DNA of 32,046 bases, taken from positions 1-32,046 of the forward strand of contig CAYVNK010000002.1 in NCBI GenBank assembly GCA_964452885.1. Direction: 5' to 3'. This document shows, piece by piece, positions 3,391 through 31,803 of the stretch. The position numbers were made by a program, and so were the translations under genes. The notes under the pieces were generated by a model. That model was not told the origin of the DNA. It saw only the letters and a list, made by a program, of their open reading frames with translations, and searched no databases. Position 1 is the first letter of the stretch. Each line of letters begins with the position of its first letter. This DNA is from an uncultured Gammaproteobacteria bacterium. GTDB lineage: Bacteria > Patescibacteriota > Microgenomatia > UM-FILTER-40-11.

Positions 3391-4551
3391 ATGATAAAAA
3401 AATTATTGAAACTCATCATTTTTTTGATAATAGTGATGGCGGCGGTAGTCGGCGGGGATATTTTTGAACGTGCCTTTGGATTTAGGCTGGCAGACAAGAT
3501 TTTCCCCCAAAAAGCTCCGTTAAAGGAAACGATTGTCCAAAGAAGAGTCTTAAACGAAGAATCGGTGGTGACAGAGGTAGTTGAGAAATGCGGTTCCTCG
3601 GTGGTGACGGTGGGAATTAAAAAGACAGAAAAAGTTTTTAATCCCTTTGAAGATTTTTTTGATCCCTTTGGCTTCTTTAATATTTCCAAACAGACACCAA
3701 AGGAGCAAAAAATTGAGCAAGATATTGGCAGCGGGTTTGTGGTTGCCAAAGACGGCCTGATTGTAACTAATAAACACGTTGTGTCTGACACCTCAGCCCA
3801 ATACCGCGTTTTTACTAAAGATAACCAGTTGTATGAAGTACAAAAAATTTATCGAGATCCGGTAAATGACCTGGCAATTTTGAAAATAGATGCTTCTAAA
3901 GACGGATTAAAACCGGTCGAACTAGGTGACTCTTCAAATTTGAAAGTGGGACAGTTTGTCATCGCTATCGGCGCGGCCTTGGGCGAATTTAGAAACACGG
4001 TGACCACTGGGGTTATTTCTGGTTTAGGAAGAACAATTTCTGCCGGCAGTCCTTTTCAGGGAGTAGAAAATTTAGATAACGTGATTCAAACAGATGCGGC
4101 CATTAATCCCGGGAACTCCGGTGGGCCGCTTTTAAATTCATTAGGTCAGGTAATTGGCGTTAATGTGGCTGTTGCCTCCGGGGCGCAAAATATTGGCTTT
4201 ACTCTACCAATAAACACGGTCAAGGAAACTCTTGATAACTTTAACAAGACCGGTCAGTTTTCCCGGCCGTTTTTAGGATTGAGATATCGGGATATTGAAG
4301 CCAAAGAAGCCATTACCAAAGGTTGGGTTGAAGGAGCGGGGGTGGTAGAAGTAGTTTCCGGCTCGCCGGCAGAAAGCGGCGGTATCAAGGTTGGGGATAT
4401 TATTACTAAAATTGACAATGAAAAAATTACTACCAAAAATCCTCTATCGAGTGTTGTTAGCAAAAAAAAGGTAGGACAAGAAATTAAAGTGACTGTTTGG
4501 CGGGATGGCTCGGAAGCAACTTTAACTGTAGTTCTTAAAGAAACTAGTTAA
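3391..4551 (+). CDS. HtrA/DegP-family trypsin-like serine protease with C-terminal PDZ domain
   Basis: TM anchor; catalytic-triad contexts TNKHVV, NDLAILKI and GNSGGPLL; PDZ segment (GSPAESGGIKVGDIITKID). Confidence 0.85.
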   Translation: MIKKLLKLIIFLIIVMAAVVGGDIFERAFGFRLADKIFPQKAPLKETIVQRRVLNEESVVTEVVEKCGSSVVTVGIKKTEKVFNPFEDFFDPFGFFNISKQTPKEQKIEQDIGSGFVVAKDGLIVTNKHVVSDTSAQYRVFTKDNQLYEVQKIYRDPVNDLAILKIDASKDGLKPVELGDSSNLKVGQFVIAIGAALGEFRNTVTTGVISGLGRTISAGSPFQGVENLDNVIQTDAAINPGNSGGPLLNSLGQVIGVNVAVASGAQNIGFTLPINTVKETLDNFNKTGQFSRPFLGLRYRDIEAKEAITKGWVEGAGVVEVVSGSPAESGGIKVGDIITKIDNEKITTKNPLSSVVSKKKVGQEIKVTVWRDGSEATLTVVLKETS

Positions 4552-20163: not shown

Positions 20164-20252
20164 ACTTCAAGGGGTTTACCCTGTGAGGGACGAGGGGAGA
20201 GGGTGAGTCAAATAGACCTATAATAAGACAGCCTATATACATAATTATTGGC

Positions 20253-20285
20253 CTTTTTCACGAACCTATAGTTTCTTTTCACGAA
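20253..20285. repeat. Direct repeat CTTTT(T)CACGAA x2, bracketed by TTGGC
   Basis: TTGGC(20248-52)-CTTTTTCACGAA(20253-64)-cctatagttt-CTTTTCACGAA(20275-85)-TTGGC(20286-90). The TTTTCACGAA cores are 21 nt apart. Confidence 0.8.
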
Positions 20286-20445
20286 TTGGCAAAGAAAACC
20301 CGAATCTGCCAAGAATGGTAAAAAAACAAATTGAGGCGTCAAGAGGCGGCAATTATGTTTAAATGATATAGTTTGATAGCAATAACTGTACCCGATTGTG
20401 GATAACTACCCGTTTTTTTTCTGGCAAATCAGCCTTGATCCAAGT

Positions 20446-20469
20446 GTCTCCGGGGGAGGCTTATTTTTT
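20446..20469 (+). terminator. Candidate intrinsic terminator inside the non-coding region
   Basis: Stem GTCTCC/GGAGGC (6 bp including one G:U), GGG loop, then TTATTTTTT (20461-20469). It lies about 280 nt after the nearest upstream stop codon. Confidence 0.4.
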
Positions 20470-20589
20470 CAAAACAACCTGGAATACAGGGTAAAAAATA
20501 ATAATTAATAGTGGAAATACTTTAGAGAAGGGTGAGATATTTGGTCATTGCTGTTCCCGACAGCCGTTTAGGGGCATTTTAGCCGGTCC

Positions 20590-20619
20590 TTGACAAGCAG
20601 TCCCGTTAGATAGTATACT
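20590..20619 (+). promoter_or_regulatory. Near-consensus promoter for the LAGLIDADG-recombinase operon
   Basis: TTGACA (20590-20595), 18 nt, TATACT (20614-20619). A leader of about 45-50 nt carries GGAG (20661-20664) 7 nt before the ATG at 20672. Confidence 0.55.
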
Positions 20620-20636
20620 CATACCGACTGAGTATA
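20614..20636. promoter_or_regulatory. Palindromic candidate operator overlapping the -10 and start site
   Basis: TATACTC (20614-20620), N9, GAGTATA (20630-20636): perfect 7-bp inverted arms. Confidence 0.4.
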
Positions 20637-20671
20637 ATACCTCAAATGTTTAGTCCAAAAGGAGCCGAAGA

Positions 20672-21166
20672 ATGAATGTTTTATCCCCTACGCAAAAAGC
20701 CTGGTTAGCTGGTTTTATAGACGGTGAAGGTTTTATTGGGATTACCTTTCAAAGAAAAAAAGAAAACAAAATTCAGTCCGCAAGCCCCCTATATCATCCT
20801 TATCTTGTTGTTACTAACACCAACCAAAATTCAATCCAGTATATTCAAAATCTCGTGGGTGATGGTAAAGTTTACAAGTTTAAAGCACGTAATCACCTTT
20901 GCTCCCCTGCTTTTCAGTATAAACTGACAAAAGGGGAAGTCCTTTTAGGTTTGCTAAAAGGGATTGAGCCTTTTTTTGTGGTTAAGAAAGAGCAAAGCAG
21001 CCTTGTGATTGAATATTTAAATTTAAGACGCGAGCGAGTGATAATTACCGGTGGCGGTAGTCGTGGCAAGACTTCATTTTCTCTTGAGGAGGAAGATATT
21101 TATCAGAAGTTATTATCTTTAAATAAGCGTGGAGAAAGGATTAAAAATGGAGTTACCTCATCTTGA
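20672..21166 (+). CDS. Single-motif LAGLIDADG homing-endonuclease-family protein, free-standing
   Basis: WLAGFIDGEGFIGITF near the N-terminus with the acidic residue retained (E). At 164 aa it matches the size of homodimeric I-CreI-type enzymes. A KKEQ helix block follows. It has its own SD. Confidence 0.85.
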   Translation: MNVLSPTQKAWLAGFIDGEGFIGITFQRKKENKIQSASPLYHPYLVVTNTNQNSIQYIQNLVGDGKVYKFKARNHLCSPAFQYKLTKGEVLLGLLKGIEPFFVVKKEQSSLVIEYLNLRRERVIITGGGSRGKTSFSLEEEDIYQKLLSLNKRGERIKNGVTSS

Positions 21167-22094
21167 TGATTTTCTTTTGCATCTTAAAGTAAATAATTAT
21201 TCTGCGGAGACAATTTATAACTATGAACTGGATTTAAAAGTTTTTCAATTGTTCTTAAACGAAGAAGCTAAAATTAGTGATTTTAACGGCATTTCAAAGA
21301 AGACAATTGAACTTTATAAAGCATATATGGCTTCAAAAGATCGAAAAACGGCAGGAGGAGAAAAAGCCCAGGGAAATCTAGCCAGCGGTTCACTTAACCG
21401 TTGCCTTTCTTCGCTCAGGGGTTATCTCAAATATTTGATTGAAATGGATTATCCCTGTCCAATTCCACCGGAAGTTATCAAGATGATTAAAACAGAAAAG
21501 AGACACGCTCGGGTCGCAGAATTTGACGACTTAATTCGGTTAATCGAGTCGCCGGCTTATTTAGAAAACAATCCCTTAATCGCGTTAAGAAATCAGACGC
21601 TGATGGAAGTTTTATTTTCGACCGGTATGAGAATTTCGGAACTGTGTAAACTAAACCGGGCGGATATTGATGGGACCGGAAAAATTTTCATTATGGGCAA
21701 GGGCAAAAAGGAACGATTTGTTTATCTAACTCCTCGAGCTCAAACTTTCTTAGAACGCTACCTCGAAAGTCGGGAGGATGCCCTACAACCGCTTTTTATT
21801 CCCTATAGCGGTCCCAATGTATCTTCAAATAAAAGAAGATTATCAACCAACTATATTCAGATGAAAATTAAAGAATATCGGGAAAAATTAAAAATTAATG
21901 TCCCGACAAGTGCTCATTCGTTAAGACACGGATTTGCCACTTACTTGGCGGAAAAAGGGGCCAGTCCGGTAGCGATACAAATTCTTTTAGGACACGAATC
22001 TTTAGACACGACAACGCGTTATGTTCATGCTTCCGATAAATTTGCCGAAGAAACCCACCGCAAATTCCACCCGCTTTCTGAAGTAAAAAAATAA
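21147..22094 (+). CDS. Tyrosine site-specific recombinase, XerC/XerD-like
   Basis: N-terminal SAM-like core-binding domain (FLLHLKVNNYSAETIYNYELDL). Catalytic residues present: R (TGMRISEL), K (GKGKKER), HSLRH, GHES, Y (TRYVH). The ATG at 21147 is preferred (GGAGAAAGGA 6 nt upstream). It overlaps the LAGLIDADG 3' end by 20 nt. Confidence 0.85.
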   Translation: MELPHLDDFLLHLKVNNYSAETIYNYELDLKVFQLFLNEEAKISDFNGISKKTIELYKAYMASKDRKTAGGEKAQGNLASGSLNRCLSSLRGYLKYLIEMDYPCPIPPEVIKMIKTEKRHARVAEFDDLIRLIESPAYLENNPLIALRNQTLMEVLFSTGMRISELCKLNRADIDGTGKIFIMGKGKKERFVYLTPRAQTFLERYLESREDALQPLFIPYSGPNVSSNKRRLSTNYIQMKIKEYREKLKINVPTSAHSLRHGFATYLAEKGASPVAIQILLGHESLDTTTRYVHASDKFAEETHRKFHPLSEVKK

Positions 22095-22103
22095 TATATA
22101 AAA

Positions 22104-22349
22104 TTAATTAATCTGTCTCTCTTTTTCTTGTACAAATTTTTGTACTAACCCCTTAAGTCCTATCTGAATTAAAAGGGCAACAATTCCCGGAGAAAGAGGA
22201 ATCTCTTCAATTTCTTTGGTTTCTTGTTTATAGAAACGGGGTTGGATTACATTAATCATGGGAATTGGCCAATAGTGAAAAGTGATTTTTTTAGGCAAGC
22301 GAATAAAATAATTTTTTTCAGGCTTAAAAGACGAGTATTCTGGGGTCAT
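22104..22349 (-). CDS. Small protein of unknown function (81 aa)
   Basis: The ORF has its own promoter with the same -10/6 nt/ATG geometry as other genes here. It has a hydrophobic or amphipathic segment PGIVALLIQIGLKGLV. I recognised no family. Confidence 0.5.
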   Translation of the reverse strand: MTPEYSSFKPEKNYFIRLPKKITFHYWPIPMINVIQPRFYKQETKEIEEIPLSPGIVALLIQIGLKGLVQKFVQEKERQIN

Positions 22350-22355
22350 GGCGAT

Positions 22356-22384
22356 ATCTTAAAAGAAAGGAGGCTTAAAGTCAA
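22356..22384 (-). promoter_or_regulatory. Promoter for the 81-aa ORF, predicted leaderless
   Basis: On the minus strand: TTGACT (22384-22379), 17 nt, TAAGAT (22361-22356), 6 nt, ATG (22349). Confidence 0.45.
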
Positions 22385-22398
22385 ATTGTTAGGGAAAG

Positions 22399-22419
22399 AA
22401 AGAATAAAAATTATTCTTT
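22399..22419 (-). terminator. Weak A/T-rich hairpin at the gyrA stop, possible terminator
   Basis: AAAGAATAA/TTATTCTTT 9-bp stem with a 3-nt loop; it includes the gyrA TAA and is followed by CTTTCCC on the minus strand. The stem is weak. Confidence 0.3.
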
Positions 22420-27818: not shown

Positions 27819-29528
27819 ATGCCCGATAACCTTAGTATAGCAAACCTTCTTTTCCGGGAAAAAATTTTATCCGCGGAACAATTAAAGCAGGTTCAGTTAG
27901 CTTTTGCCAGCTCCGGAAAACCGGAAGAAGCGGTTTTACGGGAATTGGGTTTCGTCTCCGCCAAACAAGTTGTCAAAGCCAAAGGCGCCCTTTTTAATAT
28001 TCCTTACGTCAGTTTGGACGAGATCGGCGTTACGCCGGAAGTTTTGACTTTAATTCCCAAGTCGGTGGCCGAAAGATTTACTTTGATTCCTTTTGCGACT
28101 TCCGGGGACGGCAAAGAGCTTTCGGTAGCTTTTTCCAATCCTTGGGATTTGGAAGCAATTGAGTTTGTGGAAGCAAAATCAGGAAAGAAAATAAAAGTTT
28201 TTATTGCCCCCGAAGAAGAAATTCAAAAAGCAATTACCGAGCGTTATTCACAAAATTTGGCTACTGAAGTGACAGCCGTCCTAAAAGAAACTGGCCCGGC
28301 CCAAGATATTAAAACTTTGGATTTAGATAAGGCAGACGGAGTGATTAGAAACGAGCCAATTGCCAAGATTGTTTCTACAATTTTAGAGTTTGCTATCCGG
28401 GCCAGAGCTTCTGATGTCCATATTGAGCCGACTCTTGATAAAACCCGAGTCCGTTACCGGATTGACGGCATTTTGCAGGAAAAATTGATTTTACCTAAAA
28501 GTGTTCATGAGGCTTTAGTTTCGCGGATTAAAGTTCTGTCCGATATGAAGATCGATGAAAAAAGAATTCCCCAGGACGGACGCTTTAATTTTAAGGCCGA
28601 TGGCGCCGAAATAGACTTGCGGGTTTCCACTTTGCCGACTGTTCACGGCGAGAAAATTGTTATGCGCTTACTTAAAAAAAGCGGCGGAGTTCCCACTATG
28701 CCGGAATTGGGCTTACGTGGAAGAGGTTTAAAAAATTTGGAAGACGCGATTTTGCGGCCGCATGGAATTATTTTAATTTGCGGACCGACCGGCTCCGGTA
28801 AAACTACCTCGCTTTATTCAATTCTTTCCAAAATTAATACGACTAAAGTCAATATTGTCACTTTGGAAGACCCGGTGGAATACCAAATTGCCGGCGTTAA
28901 TCAAGTACAGATTAATCCGGCGGCAGGGTTAACTTTTGCTTCCGGTTTGCGTTCTTTTTTGCGTCAGGACCCGAACATTATTATGGTTGGAGAAATTCGT
29001 GATCGGGAGACGACTGATTTGGCTATTCAGGCTTCTTTGACCGGACATTTGGTTTTTTCTACCATTCATACTAAAAGCGCTTCACAAGCGATGCCGCGTC
29101 TAGCCGACATGGGTGCTGAACCATTTCTTTTGGCTTCAACCTTAACGGCCATTATGGCTCAAAGAATTTGCCGGAGGATCTGTAATGCCTGTAAGGAAAC
29201 TTATGAGCCGCCTCCGGATGTAGTGGCGGATGTTAAAAAAATCTTAGGTCCCCTTTATCCTTTAAAAGAGGGAGATAAATTGATGTTTTCTCGCGGGAAA
29301 GGTTGCCCAGAGTGTGCCAATACCGGATACTTAGGTAGGATTGGAATTTTTGAAGTTTTGCCGGTGACGGAAAAAATCGCTCGCTTGATTATCGAGCGCT
29401 CGGCGGCTTTGGATATTGAAAAAGTGGCCGTTGAAGAAGGAATGATTACTTTAAAACAAGATGGCTACTTGAAAGCCATCGAAGGAATAACTACCATTGA
29501 AGAAGTCTTGCGTGTTGGTCAAGATTAA
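27819..29528 (+). CDS. pilB: Type IV pilus assembly ATPase PilB (GspE family)
   Basis: N-terminal GSPII_E_N-type domain, Walker A GPTGSGKTT, Walker B IIMVGEIRD, His box, tetracysteine CNAC...CPEC. Confidence 0.9.
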   Translation: MPDNLSIANLLFREKILSAEQLKQVQLAFASSGKPEEAVLRELGFVSAKQVVKAKGALFNIPYVSLDEIGVTPEVLTLIPKSVAERFTLIPFATSGDGKELSVAFSNPWDLEAIEFVEAKSGKKIKVFIAPEEEIQKAITERYSQNLATEVTAVLKETGPAQDIKTLDLDKADGVIRNEPIAKIVSTILEFAIRARASDVHIEPTLDKTRVRYRIDGILQEKLILPKSVHEALVSRIKVLSDMKIDEKRIPQDGRFNFKADGAEIDLRVSTLPTVHGEKIVMRLLKKSGGVPTMPELGLRGRGLKNLEDAILRPHGIILICGPTGSGKTTSLYSILSKINTTKVNIVTLEDPVEYQIAGVNQVQINPAAGLTFASGLRSFLRQDPNIIMVGEIRDRETTDLAIQASLTGHLVFSTIHTKSASQAMPRLADMGAEPFLLASTLTAIMAQRICRRICNACKETYEPPPDVVADVKKILGPLYPLKEGDKLMFSRGKGCPECANTGYLGRIGIFEVLPVTEKIARLIIERSAALDIEKVAVEEGMITLKQDGYLKAIEGITTIEEVLRVGQD

Positions 29529-29532
29529 AAAA

Positions 29533-30594
29533 ATGACAGACGTTCATACCCTTTTAAATTTAACGGTCGAAAAAAATGCTTCTGATTTACATCTTCAGGT
29601 AGGTATGCCGCCCTGCTTAAGAATTTACGGAGAACTTTCTTTTTTAACCGAATACGGTATTTTAACTGATGAAGATACGGAAATTTTGCTTTTTTCTCTT
29701 TTGAACGAAGAACAAAAAGAAATTTTGGCCAACAATAAAGAAATTGATTTTTCTTTTGAACTGGCGACCAAGGGCAGGTTCAGGGTCAATGTTTATCACC
29801 AAAAAGGCAGTTTGGCCGGTGCCCTCCGTTTTATCCCCTTAAAAATTAAAACTGTTGACGATTTGTTACTGCCTCCGATTTGTCATGAGTTTGTCAAACT
29901 GCGGCAGGGTTTTGTTTTGGTCACCGGACCGACCGGTCACGGTAAATCAACGACTTTGGCCGCAATTATTCAGGAAATTCTTCAAAACCGTTCCTGTAAT
30001 GTCATTACGATTGAGGATCCGATCGAATTTGTCTTTAATAGCCAGCGCTCCCTCATTTCCCAGCGGGAGCTGGGCTTAGATACCCATTCCTGGTCGGCGG
30101 CTTTGCGTTCGGCTTTGCGGGAAGATCCGGACGTGGTTTTAATTGGGGAAATGAGAGATTATGATACGATTGCCGCCGCTTTAACCATTGCCGAAACCGG
30201 ACATTTGGTTTTTTCTACCTTGCACACCAATTCGGCTTCCCAGACCATTGACCGGATTATCGATGCTTTCCCCGAAGAAGCAAAAAGCCAAGTCAGAATA
30301 CAGATGGCAACTTCGTTAGAAGCGGTTTTCTCGCAAAGACTGGTTCCCGTAATTAACGGGGGGAGGATGGTGGCCTACGAAGTCATGGTGGCCACTTCGG
30401 CGATCCGGACGGCTATTCGGGACAAAAAAACCCATATGCTGGATAATATTATGCAGACCTCGGGCGCTTACGGTATGTCAACCCTGGAAACTTCTCTGGT
30501 TAAGTTGGTCATGGACGGAAAAATTTCCCTTGATACTGCCAGACTTTTTGCTCTGCGACCGGAGGAAGTCACCCGTTTAATGAAAGGTTCCTAA
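29533..30594 (+). CDS. pilT: Twitching-motility/retraction ATPase PilT
   Basis: ASDLHL, Walker A GPTGHGKST, VVLIGEMRD, TLHT, AIRTAIRDKK (PilT signature-like). The start is set at the ATG at 29533, 5 nt after the pilB stop. Confidence 0.9.
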   Translation: MTDVHTLLNLTVEKNASDLHLQVGMPPCLRIYGELSFLTEYGILTDEDTEILLFSLLNEEQKEILANNKEIDFSFELATKGRFRVNVYHQKGSLAGALRFIPLKIKTVDDLLLPPICHEFVKLRQGFVLVTGPTGHGKSTTLAAIIQEILQNRSCNVITIEDPIEFVFNSQRSLISQRELGLDTHSWSAALRSALREDPDVVLIGEMRDYDTIAAALTIAETGHLVFSTLHTNSASQTIDRIIDAFPEEAKSQVRIQMATSLEAVFSQRLVPVINGGRMVAYEVMVATSAIRTAIRDKKTHMLDNIMQTSGAYGMSTLETSLVKLVMDGKISLDTARLFALRPEEVTRLMKGS

Positions 30595-30597
30595 AGC

Positions 30598-31803
30598 ATG
30601 CTAAATTTTTCTTACAAAGCCAAAGACCAGACTGGAAAAGAGGTTAAGGGTCTGGTGGAGGCGCAGGACAAAAAACAGGCCCTGACTATTTTACACGAGA
30701 AACAGTTCACCCCCTTTTTTATCAAAGAAGAGGGAGAAAATTTCTTGGGTTATTTTTATAATAAGTTTGTCAAAAAAGTTTCTCAGGGGGAAGTGGCGGT
30801 TTTTACCCGTCAGATTGCGACCATGATTAACGCCGGCCTTCCCTTGACTGAGGCTTTAACAATTTTGAGTTCCCAAGGAAAAGGTTTGCTTCAGGAAGCG
30901 ATTGGCGTGATTTTAAGAGATGTTGAAGGCGGCTCAAATTTGGCCGATGCTCTGCAAAAACATCCCAAAATTTTTTCTCCGGTTTATATTGCTTTAGTCC
31001 GGGCCGGAGAATCCGCCGGAGTTTTGGATAATATTTTAACCCGACTGGCCGATAATTTAGAGGCGCAAAGAGAATTTAACTCCAAGATTAAAGGCGCCTT
31101 AACTTATCCGATTATTATTTTAGTCGGTATGGGCGGCGTAATTTTTATTATGATGGTTTTTGTTATTCCTAAACTCACCGTTCTTTATACCGAATTTAAT
31201 GCCAAACTGCCGAAGGCAACCCAAATATTAATTACCTTTTCTTCCTTTGCCGCCAAGTTTTGGTGGCTGATAATTTTGGTGGTGGTTGGTTTAGCTTATG
31301 TTTTCCGGATTCTTAATAAAAATAGAGACACTAAAAGAAAATTAGATGAACTTAAATTCAAAATTCCGATTTACGGCAAACTGCAAAACCAGATTGTTTT
31401 GGCCGAATTTACCAGAACCTTGGGTTTACTCGTCGGCGCCGGAGTTTCCATTGTGGAAGCCTTACAAATTTCATCGAAGACTGCCAGCAACATTAAGATT
31501 GAAGAAGGAATTTTGGAAGCCTCCAAGCAAGTAGAAAAAGGGTTCCCTCTTTCGGTCACCATTTCCACCAATCCTTTTTTCCCAAAAATTTTATCCCAGA
31601 TGCTGACTGTTGGTGAAGAAACCGGCAAGGTAGATGAAGTTTTATTGAAAGTCGCCAAGTTTTTTCAGTCCGAGTCTGATGAATCCTTAAAAGGCTTGAC
31701 TTCGGCAATTGAACCTTTAATAATGGTAATAATGGGTGTGGGAGTAGGATTTTTAGCGATTGCGATTATTTTACCGATCTATAACTTGACAAGCGCTTTT
31801 TAA
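30598..31803 (+). CDS. pilC: Type IV pilus platform protein PilC (GspF family)
   Basis: 401 aa with two T2SSF-type repeats (FTRQIATMINAGLPL...; FTRTLGLLVGAGVSI...) and three TM segments. Confidence 0.9.
   Translation: MLNFSYKAKDQTGKEVKGLVEAQDKKQALTILHEKQFTPFFIKEEGENFLGYFYNKFVKKVSQGEVAVFTRQIATMINAGLPLTEALTILSSQGKGLLQEAIGVILRDVEGGSNLADALQKHPKIFSPVYIALVRAGESAGVLDNILTRLADNLEAQREFNSKIKGALTYPIIILVGMGGVIFIMMVFVIPKLTVLYTEFNAKLPKATQILITFSSFAAKFWWLIILVVVGLAYVFRILNKNRDTKRKLDELKFKIPIYGKLQNQIVLAEFTRTLGLLVGAGVSIVEALQISSKTASNIKIEEGILEASKQVEKGFPLSVTISTNPFFPKILSQMLTVGEETGKVDEVLLKVAKFFQSESDESLKGLTSAIEPLIMVIMGVGVGFLAIAIILPIYNLTSAF

Follow-up and report, generated by a model that had tools for sequence, protein, structure and literature searches.

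Free-standing endonucleases of T-even phages, such as SegB, SegF, SegG and MobE, spread by intronless homing and carry flanking markers along by co-conversion (PMC2988022, PMC2790892, PMC2330249), and recombination boundaries marked by nucleases have been reported in phages (PMC10055350). Intronless homing has so far been documented mainly for such phage enzymes, of the GIY-YIG and HNH types. Bacteria of the Candidate Phyla Radiation (CPR, the Patescibacteria) host active single-domain LAGLIDADG enzymes, I-ShaI for example, in rRNA insertions, in a report that mentions neither free-standing copies nor recombinases (PMC11270868). Here we consider 32,046 nucleotides (nt) of contig CAYVNK010000002.1, from an uncultured CPR bacterium; this whole stretch is called the window in what follows. 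In it a free-standing LAGLIDADG gene overlaps the start of xer, the gene of a tyrosine recombinase. We think it probable that this gene specifies a xer-specific homing endonuclease which spreads by intronless homing with co-conversion, its cleavage activity and its target being deduced from the comparison of loci. The family to which it belongs is specialised on the xer locus of CPR bacteria, and appears to be a selfish cassette that moves between lineages, taking the first third of xer along, which presupposes a route for DNA transfer between cells. In the literature that we searched, we found no description of an association between LAGLIDADG proteins and xer, nor of a LAGLIDADG homing endonuclease that lives free-standing in a bacterial chromosome at a housekeeping locus coding for protein.

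Like the Seg and Mob genes, the nuclease gene is a stand-alone open reading frame (ORF) beside conserved genes, present or absent at a fixed locus, with co-conversion and mosaic boundaries. Unlike these GIY-YIG or HNH enzymes, which pass between co-infecting phages, it is of the LAGLIDADG type and resides in a cellular CPR chromosome, within the 5' leader of a housekeeping recombinase gene to which it is translationally coupled. Its product shares fold, size and catalytic positions with I-CreI, I-MsoI and I-CvuI. The genes of these enzymes, and that of I-ShaI, lie in group I introns or rRNA insertions and target rRNA genes, whereas here there is neither intron nor intein and the locus codes for a protein; the usual residences of LAGLIDADG genes (group I intron, archaeal intron, intein) do not apply. 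The xer-linked family further differs from the I-CreI group by a conserved C-terminal TGRGxRGxTSF...LNKRG extension, shared with relatives on predicted viral contigs. A third parallel comes from organelles, where homing-endonuclease ORFs such as the Allomyces atp6 insertion enter a protein gene at its end, bringing a substitute for the coding segment that they displace. Here too the mobile unit would bring a piece of the host gene, and a displaced pseudo-copy can remain (loci L086, L093 and L089). Unlike the Allomyces case, the replacement affects the 5' end instead of the 3' end, a bacterium is the host, and the nuclease is a separate, coupled ORF without in-frame fusion. The locus is composed as follows, dS standing for synonymous divergence:

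20164 to 20589, + strand: ancestral spacer between DUF5656 and xer, conserved block-wise, outside the mobile island and present in relatives without the nuclease gene
20590 to 20619, + strand: ancestral xer promoter, TTGACA-18-TATACT (11 of 12 positions in a consensus scan)
about 20620 to 21460, + strand: horizontally exchanged island made of the 3' half of the hairpin, the nuclease gene and the 5' third of xer (dS step, sliding identity to locus L001)
20626 to 20655, + strand: conserved hairpin or palindrome at the predicted 5' end of the transcript (covariation)
20627 to 20633, 20634 to 20647 and 20648 to 20654, + strand: its left arm ACTGAGT, its conserved 14-nt loop and its right arm GTTTAGT
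20659 to 20664, + strand: Shine-Dalgarno (SD) sequence AAGGAG of the LAGLIDADG ORF (direct sequence reading)
20672 to 21166, + strand: free-standing single-motif LAGLIDADG homing-endonuclease gene of the I-CreI type (Pfam, profile, fold, conservation)
21147 to 21460, + strand: 5' part of xer (codons 1 to about 105), read as the co-conversion tract (identity and dS step)
21147 to 22094, + strand: the host gene xer, coding for a complete Xer-type tyrosine recombinase of 315 residues (Pfam, catalytic residues, synteny)

Reading the ORFs anew gives back the coordinates, sizes and overlap first described: 164 residues for the nuclease and 315 for Xer counted from its ATG (a GTG at 21129 is an alternative start), with 20 nt (21147-21166) shared by the two genes in the ATG reading. 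The segment GGAGAAAGGA lies within the LAGLIDADG ORF, 5' of the xer ATG. The nuclease ORF is a separate one, with its own SD, and shares no frame with any host protein. The same arrangement is found on independent contigs, and the window is not chimeric at this point.

Loci (numbered with the prefix L) were gathered in two ways, via the nuclease protein and then via the Xer protein; nucleases at least 43% identical count as family members, and Xer proteins 64-85% identical as orthologues. The association between the two genes turns out to be one-sided. A tyrosine recombinase gene is adjacent in 15 of 15 informative family loci, against none of 44 more distant LAGLIDADG loci. In the other direction, the nuclease gene is present in four of the 64 xer orthologues that have sufficient upstream sequence, four extra xer loci that were checked are all non-carriers, and the protein database holds 107 LAGLIDADG clusters versus 4149 Xer clusters; about 94-97% of close xer orthologues are without the gene. 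The first-pass annotation, made from the sequence of the window, had envisaged that each gene might occur without the other: this is so for xer, and not for the nuclease, and co-occurrence holds from nuclease to recombinase without holding from xer to nuclease. Non-carriers keep the order yebC - DUF5656 - [580-640-nt spacer] - xer - ... - gyrA - gyrB, and comparison of this neighbourhood, from yebC and the membrane-protein gene to gyrA, identifies the nuclease gene as an addition between the hairpin and the xer ATG. In a neighbour-joining tree of 79 Xer proteins, carriers are dispersed among non-carriers over no fewer than six positions. In all pairs with a xer of the window type, the distance from nuclease stop to xer start is always between -20 and +2 nt, and the conserved LNK(K/R)G codons of the nuclease C-terminus provide the AAAGGA or AAGGAG that makes the SD of xer. 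Two possible tell-tales failed: Xer proteins without a SAM_5 Pfam match do not mark carriers (the four such loci are all non-carriers), and non-carriers with long leaders show no degenerate nuclease remnants, xer-5' pseudo-copies being seen instead.

Evidence for mobility comes from an island of recent shared ancestry. Between the window and carrier L001, the nuclease gene shows a dS of 0.62 and xer codons 1-95 one of 0.69, and dS is saturated or at least 2.6 for LytR_C, YebC, DUF5656, xer codons 96-315 and GyrA. Sliding identity to L001 is 80-95% inside the island, apart from two short dips to 60-70% within the nuclease ORF, versus 30-60% upstream (conserved blocks reaching 75%) and 68-78% downstream; within xer, nucleotide identity is 83-92% in the 5' part and 60-78% further downstream. 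The sliding comparison sets the limits at about 20620 and about 21460, and by this measure the left edge of the island is inside the hairpin loop and its right edge near xer codon 100. The same step is found between L011 and L013 (0.26 / 0.42 / 1.31), and between L012 and L152 the nuclease has a dS of 1.07 while the adjacent xer paralogue is saturated. The Xer proteins tell the same story. From residue 86 to its end, the window Xer is closest to the non-carriers L062 (86%) and L063 (84%), with 83% for carrier L001 of its clade. Residues 35-85, by contrast, are 89% identical to L001; other clades' carrier or footprint loci (L136, L089, L086, L093, L011, L013) reach 51-63%, versus 25-38% for own-clade non-carriers over alignment columns 31-75 (30-column windows). 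Judged from these identities, the window Xer is a mosaic, its 5' part grouping with carriers across clades and the rest with its own non-carrier clade. The first-pass proposal of a selfish nuclease that homed beside a housekeeping xer gene is hence upheld in a narrower form, that of a whole family of the CPR xer locus exchanged together with the first 100 or so codons of xer. A conserved pseudo-palindromic target was also looked for in xer codons 1-120 and was discarded: carriers diverge specifically at columns 39-47 and 73-93, with no clear conserved 22-bp site.

The nuclease protein itself conforms to what had been read from its sequence, a LAGFIDGEG motif with its acidic residue kept in a protein of I-CreI-type size. 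Pfam LAGLIDADG_1 (PF00961) matches it (E 1.4e-6, 29.5 bits for a cut-off of 23.1), and no other Pfam domain was found in the 164 residues. The single motif occupies residues 12-20, E19 being its acidic residue. An alignment of 33 members has G14, D17, G18, G20 and K105 without exception and E19 in at least 90%, and the C-terminal TGRGxRGxTSF...LNKRG block is nearly invariant; the invariant K105, within PYLxxKxxQ, aligns with K98 of I-CreI (PFLKLKQKQ). The family comprises 107 protein-database clusters, mostly of 150-170 residues, and its profile retrieves I-CreI, I-MsoI and I-CvuI from the PDB at E 1e-10 to 1e-15. An AlphaFold2 model (pLDDT, the model's own confidence measure, 86.6) displays the alpha-beta-beta-alpha-beta-beta-alpha LAGLIDADG core, with helices at residues 6-19, 52-62 and 88-101 and strands at 20-29, 38-49, 66-70 and 80-85; its best Foldseek matches are I-CreI, at the top, and I-MsoI (E 3e-10, TM 0.70-0.77). 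Sequence and model concur in making this protein a single-motif I-CreI-type enzyme that has kept its catalytic positions and is predicted to be an active nuclease; like I-CreI, it would presumably work as a homodimer. Purifying selection acts on the gene, with a dN/dS (the ratio of nonsynonymous to synonymous divergence) of 0.11-0.29 wherever dS is unsaturated, a result that also speaks for the homing interpretation. A role in a defence system was considered and set aside, as PADLOC matched the nuclease with generic 'HEase' models and with no other defence-system model. The nearest outgroup consists of single-domain LAGLIDADG genes on predicted viral contigs (IMG/VR, L155-L162; 30-36% full-length identity), nearly all of them without an adjacent recombinase gene, whose products have the same C-terminal LNxRG motif. 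Family members proper were sought on viral contigs, where only relatives at 36% identity or less were found.

As for the recombinase, Pfam finds Phage_integrase (E 7e-32) and an N-terminal SAM_1 domain, in keeping with the two-domain layout of such enzymes, and the catalytic set is complete as had been described (R162, the Lys of GKGKK, H257-x-x-R260, H283 and Y292), so that profile searches bear out the first assignment of both proteins. The best NCBIfam match is XerC with 191.8 bits (equivalog cut-off 335), followed by XerD with 180.6 (cut-off 329.6). Both scores being below cut-off, the product is best described as a divergent Xer of the CPR lineage, for which XerC and XerD are only the best-matching families. 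It is conserved across CPR lineages at 64-85% identity, and the 4149 database clusters were counted at E<=1e-80. Many CPR relatives possess a second Xer paralogue with 30-46% identity to the window type, located 0.1-1.6 kb from the window-type xer, on either side (L092, L107, L109, L113-116, L120, L124, L131-133, L138); there is none within the 32-kb window.

How would such a cassette spread? The nuclease gene lies in the xer leader, between the 5'-terminal hairpin and the xer ATG, on the ancestral xer promoter, with translational coupling through the stop/start overlap and through a xer SD lodged in the LNKRG codons of the nuclease. Because the nuclease gene would use the promoter of xer and is translationally coupled to it, xer would stay expressed after insertion. 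The enzyme would then cut nuclease-free xer loci, either on or close to the hairpin palindrome or within some 100 codons of the xer start, and the break would be repaired from the carrier allele. Along with the nuclease gene, this repair would bring in the hairpin's 3' half and the stretch of xer from codon 1 to about 100. Carrier alleles would be protected by their altered loop and right arm (TTACA changed into AAAY[G/A]) and by the divergent 5' segment of xer. Our tentative choice for the preferred target is the pseudo-palindromic DNA of the hairpin, the alternative being the divergent segment of xer codons 35-95. In the non-carrier sequence GAGTATAATATCCCTTACACTC, 7 of 11 positions are symmetric; carriers, read directly, have 4 of 11.

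The hairpin deserves a closer look. A 30-bp element, aACTGAGTATAAT-atcyc-TTACACTCAGTt, is found upstream of the ATG in nearly every xer locus (L001-L151), at a distance of mostly 44-143 nt in non-carriers and 493-803 nt in carriers, and the nuclease ORF is always situated between the element and the ATG. Its arms covary, with 85% of cells paired and 74 double-change cells versus 33.5 in shuffles (0 of 500 shuffles as high), and U.G-type intermediates on the + strand predominate. This covariation, and the position at the predicted 5' end of the transcript, favours an RNA hairpin. As DNA, the element is a 12-6-12 palindrome with dif-like inner bases (...ATAA-N6-TTA(C)...), and it could be an mRNA 5' stem-loop, an operator or dif site of Xer, or the target of the nuclease. 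No Rfam entry matches either the hairpin element or the conserved spacer that precedes it.

Carrier alleles bear their own version of this element. At loop columns 24-25, AA is present in 10 of 10 carriers and in 3 of 55 non-carriers (Fisher p 1.6e-9, uncorrected for phylogeny), and in all 10 carriers AAAY[G/A] replaces TTACA at the 3' end of the loop (AAATG at 20644-20648 in the window). The excess of changes is limited to the 3' half of the element, with a mean of 4.1 differences versus 0.96, and there is none in the 5' half. In the window and in L001, three otherwise invariant stem pairs have become G.U, which keeps the hairpin and alters the DNA; the predicted fold of carrier-allele hairpins is weaker. 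Three non-carriers (L073, L118/L119) have a carrier-type AAAC loop with a non-carrier-type Xer N-terminus, and may be naturally resistant alleles or short conversion tracts. In another non-carrier (L136, 3850-3881) the whole 30-bp element is inverted, 143 nt upstream of xer, and is followed by a new promoter-like site, TGGTATAAT; the Xer N-terminus of this locus is of the carrier-linked type. Elsewhere (L113-L116, L131-L133) a different gene of about 1 kb, with a weak Pfam match to NT5C (E 8.6e-4, below cut-off), lies between hairpin and xer, and a second half-copy, AAACTGAGTATAAT, stands immediately 5' of the xer ATG. Insertions seem to recur in this slot between hairpin and xer.

A dif site beside the xer gene is a feature of the single-recombinase XerH/difH system. 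The same is true of XerS/difSL, which likewise works with a single Xer recombinase (PMC1914069). As in these systems, a 12-6-12 palindrome with inner ...ATAA-N6-TTA... is located directly upstream of xer; unlike in these, the covarying arms and the position at the transcript 5' end favour an RNA hairpin, and many relatives have a second Xer paralogue. An improbable extension of the homing interpretation is that the island transports a matched set, comprising an altered inner half-site of the palindrome, a nuclease that cuts the unaltered form and a replacement of the N-terminal (core-binding) domain of Xer. The palindrome would in that case be Xer's own DNA site, dif or auto-operator, a notion to which we give no better chance. 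This extension takes in the terminus-like look of the locus, with its converging genes and a cumulative GC skew that peaks near 22 kb. If this were true, the nuclease would both parasitise and re-specify the resolution of chromosome dimers in CPR bacteria, and the deletion of xer in two lineages would be collateral damage.

Gain, decay and loss have all left their signs. In carrier L086 and in non-carriers L093 and L089, all of one clade, an old copy of the xer 5' end, containing stops or frameshifted, lies between the hairpin and an intact xer (159-329, codons 1-57, in L086; 3721-3963, codons 1-81, in L093; 3707-3829, codons 1-40, in L089). The two non-carriers correspond to L086 minus the nuclease ORF, and are clean losses that left a footprint. 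Elsewhere xer is the missing gene. In L012 (2322-2375) and L152 (3964-4038) the last 18-25 codons of a window-type xer come directly after the nuclease stop, the remainder having been deleted, and no xer remnant is detectable in L004 (6481-6925) beside an intact nuclease gene. Such deletions may be collateral damage from the nuclease. In the clade of these xer-deleted loci, L012 and L152, the genes follow one another as GluRS - x - second Xer paralogue - nuclease gene - uppS. Since the second paralogue adjoins the window-type xer in many non-carriers, it is only in appearance that L004 and L012 pair the nuclease with another recombinase; that the nuclease goes with two Xer paralogues was hence no longer taken to prove a functional link, and a deletion of the window-type xer from an ancestral tandem was preferred. 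Continued exchange within the xer-deleted clade is suggested by a nuclease dS lower than that of the neighbouring gene. Decay is visible in L141-L143, where the nuclease (P0102) is shortened to 101 residues and K105 is gone, and in P0034, of 178 residues, which is fused or frameshifted and ends in an unrelated C-terminus; both look like decaying copies. The 101-residue P0102 copy is abundant in metagenomes (65 blocks of the collection). In L153 a second, unrelated LAGLIDADG_1 ORF (4029-4514, 161 residues, E 3.6e-12) lies directly downstream of the family member, which would amount to two nuclease genes stacked at one site.

To be sure, several points weigh against homing as we picture it. Its ongoing character is deduced from comparisons between lineages, no non-carrier allele of the same population having been recovered. 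The hairpin variant could mark by mere linkage the left junction of the island instead of conferring immunity, and neither the Fisher nor the Mann-Whitney tests are corrected for phylogeny. The tight stop/start coupling of all window-type pairs is compatible with a functional partnership as well. Finally, the clade of L012, L152, L153 and L154 keeps its nuclease intact and under purifying selection (dN/dS 0.11) despite the loss of the adjacent window-type xer. This is also what is expected of a gene with a host function, which it may have, and it is the main point that homing leaves unexplained.

A host function is precisely what the hardiest of the alternatives assumes, that of a domesticated LAGLIDADG protein kept as an accessory factor or regulator of Xer, for example by binding the upstream palindrome. 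The coupling just mentioned, with the xer SD inside the conserved LNKRG codons, would be natural for such a partner, and so would a nuclease dN/dS of 0.11-0.29 wherever dS is unsaturated, the Xer gene next door in all 15 informative loci, and the persistence of the nuclease gene beside the second Xer paralogue once the window-type xer was deleted. We nevertheless find domestication, the third reading of the first-pass annotation, unlikely. The large majority of close xer orthologues quoted above, 94-97%, do without the gene in the same locus structure; truncated copies exist; the young ancestry of the island implies horizontal exchange independent of the host background; and a loss of xer in an ancestral two-xer tandem accounts for the place of the nuclease gene beside the second paralogue. 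Because the relatives on predicted viral contigs share LNxRG and nearly all lack a nearby recombinase gene, it was not for xer that this motif evolved. In the domesticated LAGLIDADG proteins that are known, WhiA among them, the catalytic acidic residue and the Lys are lost. Proteins of the WhiA type have a helix-turn-helix domain besides two LAGLIDADG domains that are degenerate and lack catalytic acidic residues; the xer-linked protein has a single domain in which, over the 33 aligned members, the acidic residue and the Lys are both retained.

One may also imagine an old resident, inherited vertically with many losses and without any homing, the similarity within the island merely reflecting stronger constraint. 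The pairwise identities of nuclease and Xer do correlate among window-type pairs (Pearson 0.81), and clean deletions of the nuclease ORF are observed, as this would predict. Constraint, however, cannot produce a dS of 0.6-0.7 in the nuclease gene and xer codons 1-95 beside saturated codons of the same gene and saturated flanks, and the step is repeated in three independent pairs. Moreover, the xer 5' part groups with carriers across clades, in contradiction with the tree of the 3' part, and the nucleases of L004 and L105 are 68% identical while the recombinases now adjacent to them share 39%. Purely vertical descent is, in our view, quite improbable. Least tenable, and very improbable indeed, is the two-enzyme module of the first-pass annotation, a single integrative or rearrangement element with the recombinase as its integrating enzyme: the two genes are adjacent and would be co-transcribed, a palindromic dif-like 12-6-12 element lies beside the recombinase gene and other lineages have an NT5C-like gene inserted at this very site, along with a duplicated half-element, but xer codons from about 105 to 315 and both flanks are host-like and syntenic in non-carriers, no direct or inverted repeats bound the pair in the window (the only matches are short and at chance level), and Xer is a widely conserved orthologue, with its 4149 clusters, and no element-specific integrase.

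Homing into the xer leader would thus provide a clear case of a free-standing LAGLIDADG homing endonuclease at a bacterial housekeeping protein locus. The sharply bounded co-conversion tract constitutes direct sequence evidence of homologous DNA exchange between diverged uncultured CPR lineages, and natural meganucleases resembling I-CreI, with a target region that can be predicted, are at hand in the family's 107 clusters. Two further elements of CPR xer genes have come to light in the comparison, a 5' hairpin that is conserved and covaries, and a conserved spacer whose single DnaA box is invariant.

In relatives without the nuclease gene this spacer is about 580-640 nt long and has the same conserved blocks as the window. 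As a consequence of this sharing, spacer and promoter must predate the nuclease gene and belong to xer. The first-pass annotation had attributed both genes to one near-consensus promoter, and TTGACA-18-TATACT is indeed in place; this promoter and the long spacer are, however, ancestral to xer and present in non-carriers. The promoter would drive the nuclease gene and xer jointly, from a predicted transcription start. Most loci, carrier or not, have a -35 TTGACA and a -10-like hexamer a few nt 5' of the hairpin; a TATAAT inside the hairpin was rejected as -10 box, the -35 TTGACA pairing in most loci with the hexamer upstream of the element. The blocks of the spacer (20164-20589 in the window; L063-L096) are GGGAGAGGG, CCTATAAT (twice), CTTTTCACGA (twice), TTGGCAA-N13-15-TTGCCAA, TGATATAGTTTGATAG and an invariant TTGTGGATAACT, with variable spacers between them. 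They may be binding sites, or an undescribed RNA. The invariant TTGTGGATAACT contains the sole perfect DnaA box of the 32-kb window (20397-20405, minus strand). A replication origin in the spacer was dismissed: there is one perfect DnaA box and no cluster of them, and dnaA is absent from the window. The ORFs at 27819-30594 are T2SSE ATPases.

The 508 nt without coding sequence ahead of the nuclease ORF (20164-20671) are the longest such stretch of the window, where two further seeming gaps contain the genes of ribosomal proteins S6 and S18. ARAGORN finds no tRNA in this gap, and Rfam has no match there at gathering or E-value thresholds, introns of groups I and II included. A non-coding RNA, an intron or a tRNA inside the spacer was set aside after these empty scans, in agreement with the initial remark that the nuclease gene has no rRNA, tRNA or intron setting. 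To the right of xer there is one further candidate gene:

22104 to 22349, - strand: 81-residue ORF, probably no conserved gene, outside the feature

This ORF had been taken for a gene with its own promoter, which the comparison does not sustain: it has no Pfam or NCBIfam match, tblastn against 234 related or comparison loci yields no homologue even at E<=1, and its promoter match is weak (9 of 12 positions). If it is no gene, then 22095-22410 makes a second non-coding stretch of about 316 nt, and the gap at 20164-20671, once presented as the only long one, is the longest of two. Among relatives, the length of the spacer between xer and gyrA ranges from 36 nt to over 1 kb. About 22.1 kb is a point of gene convergence, with + strand genes on the left and gyrA, gyrB and holB (- strand) on the right, and the cumulative GC skew has a first peak near 22 kb, then a plateau, a slight dip and a renewed rise from about 28 kb. 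The region around 22 kb is terminus-like by gene convergence and skew, for which 32 kb are not conclusive. Further along, at 27819-31803, two T2SSE-type ATPases and a T2SSF platform protein make up a set like those of type IV pili or competence, by which the DNA uptake that homing between cells would need might take place.

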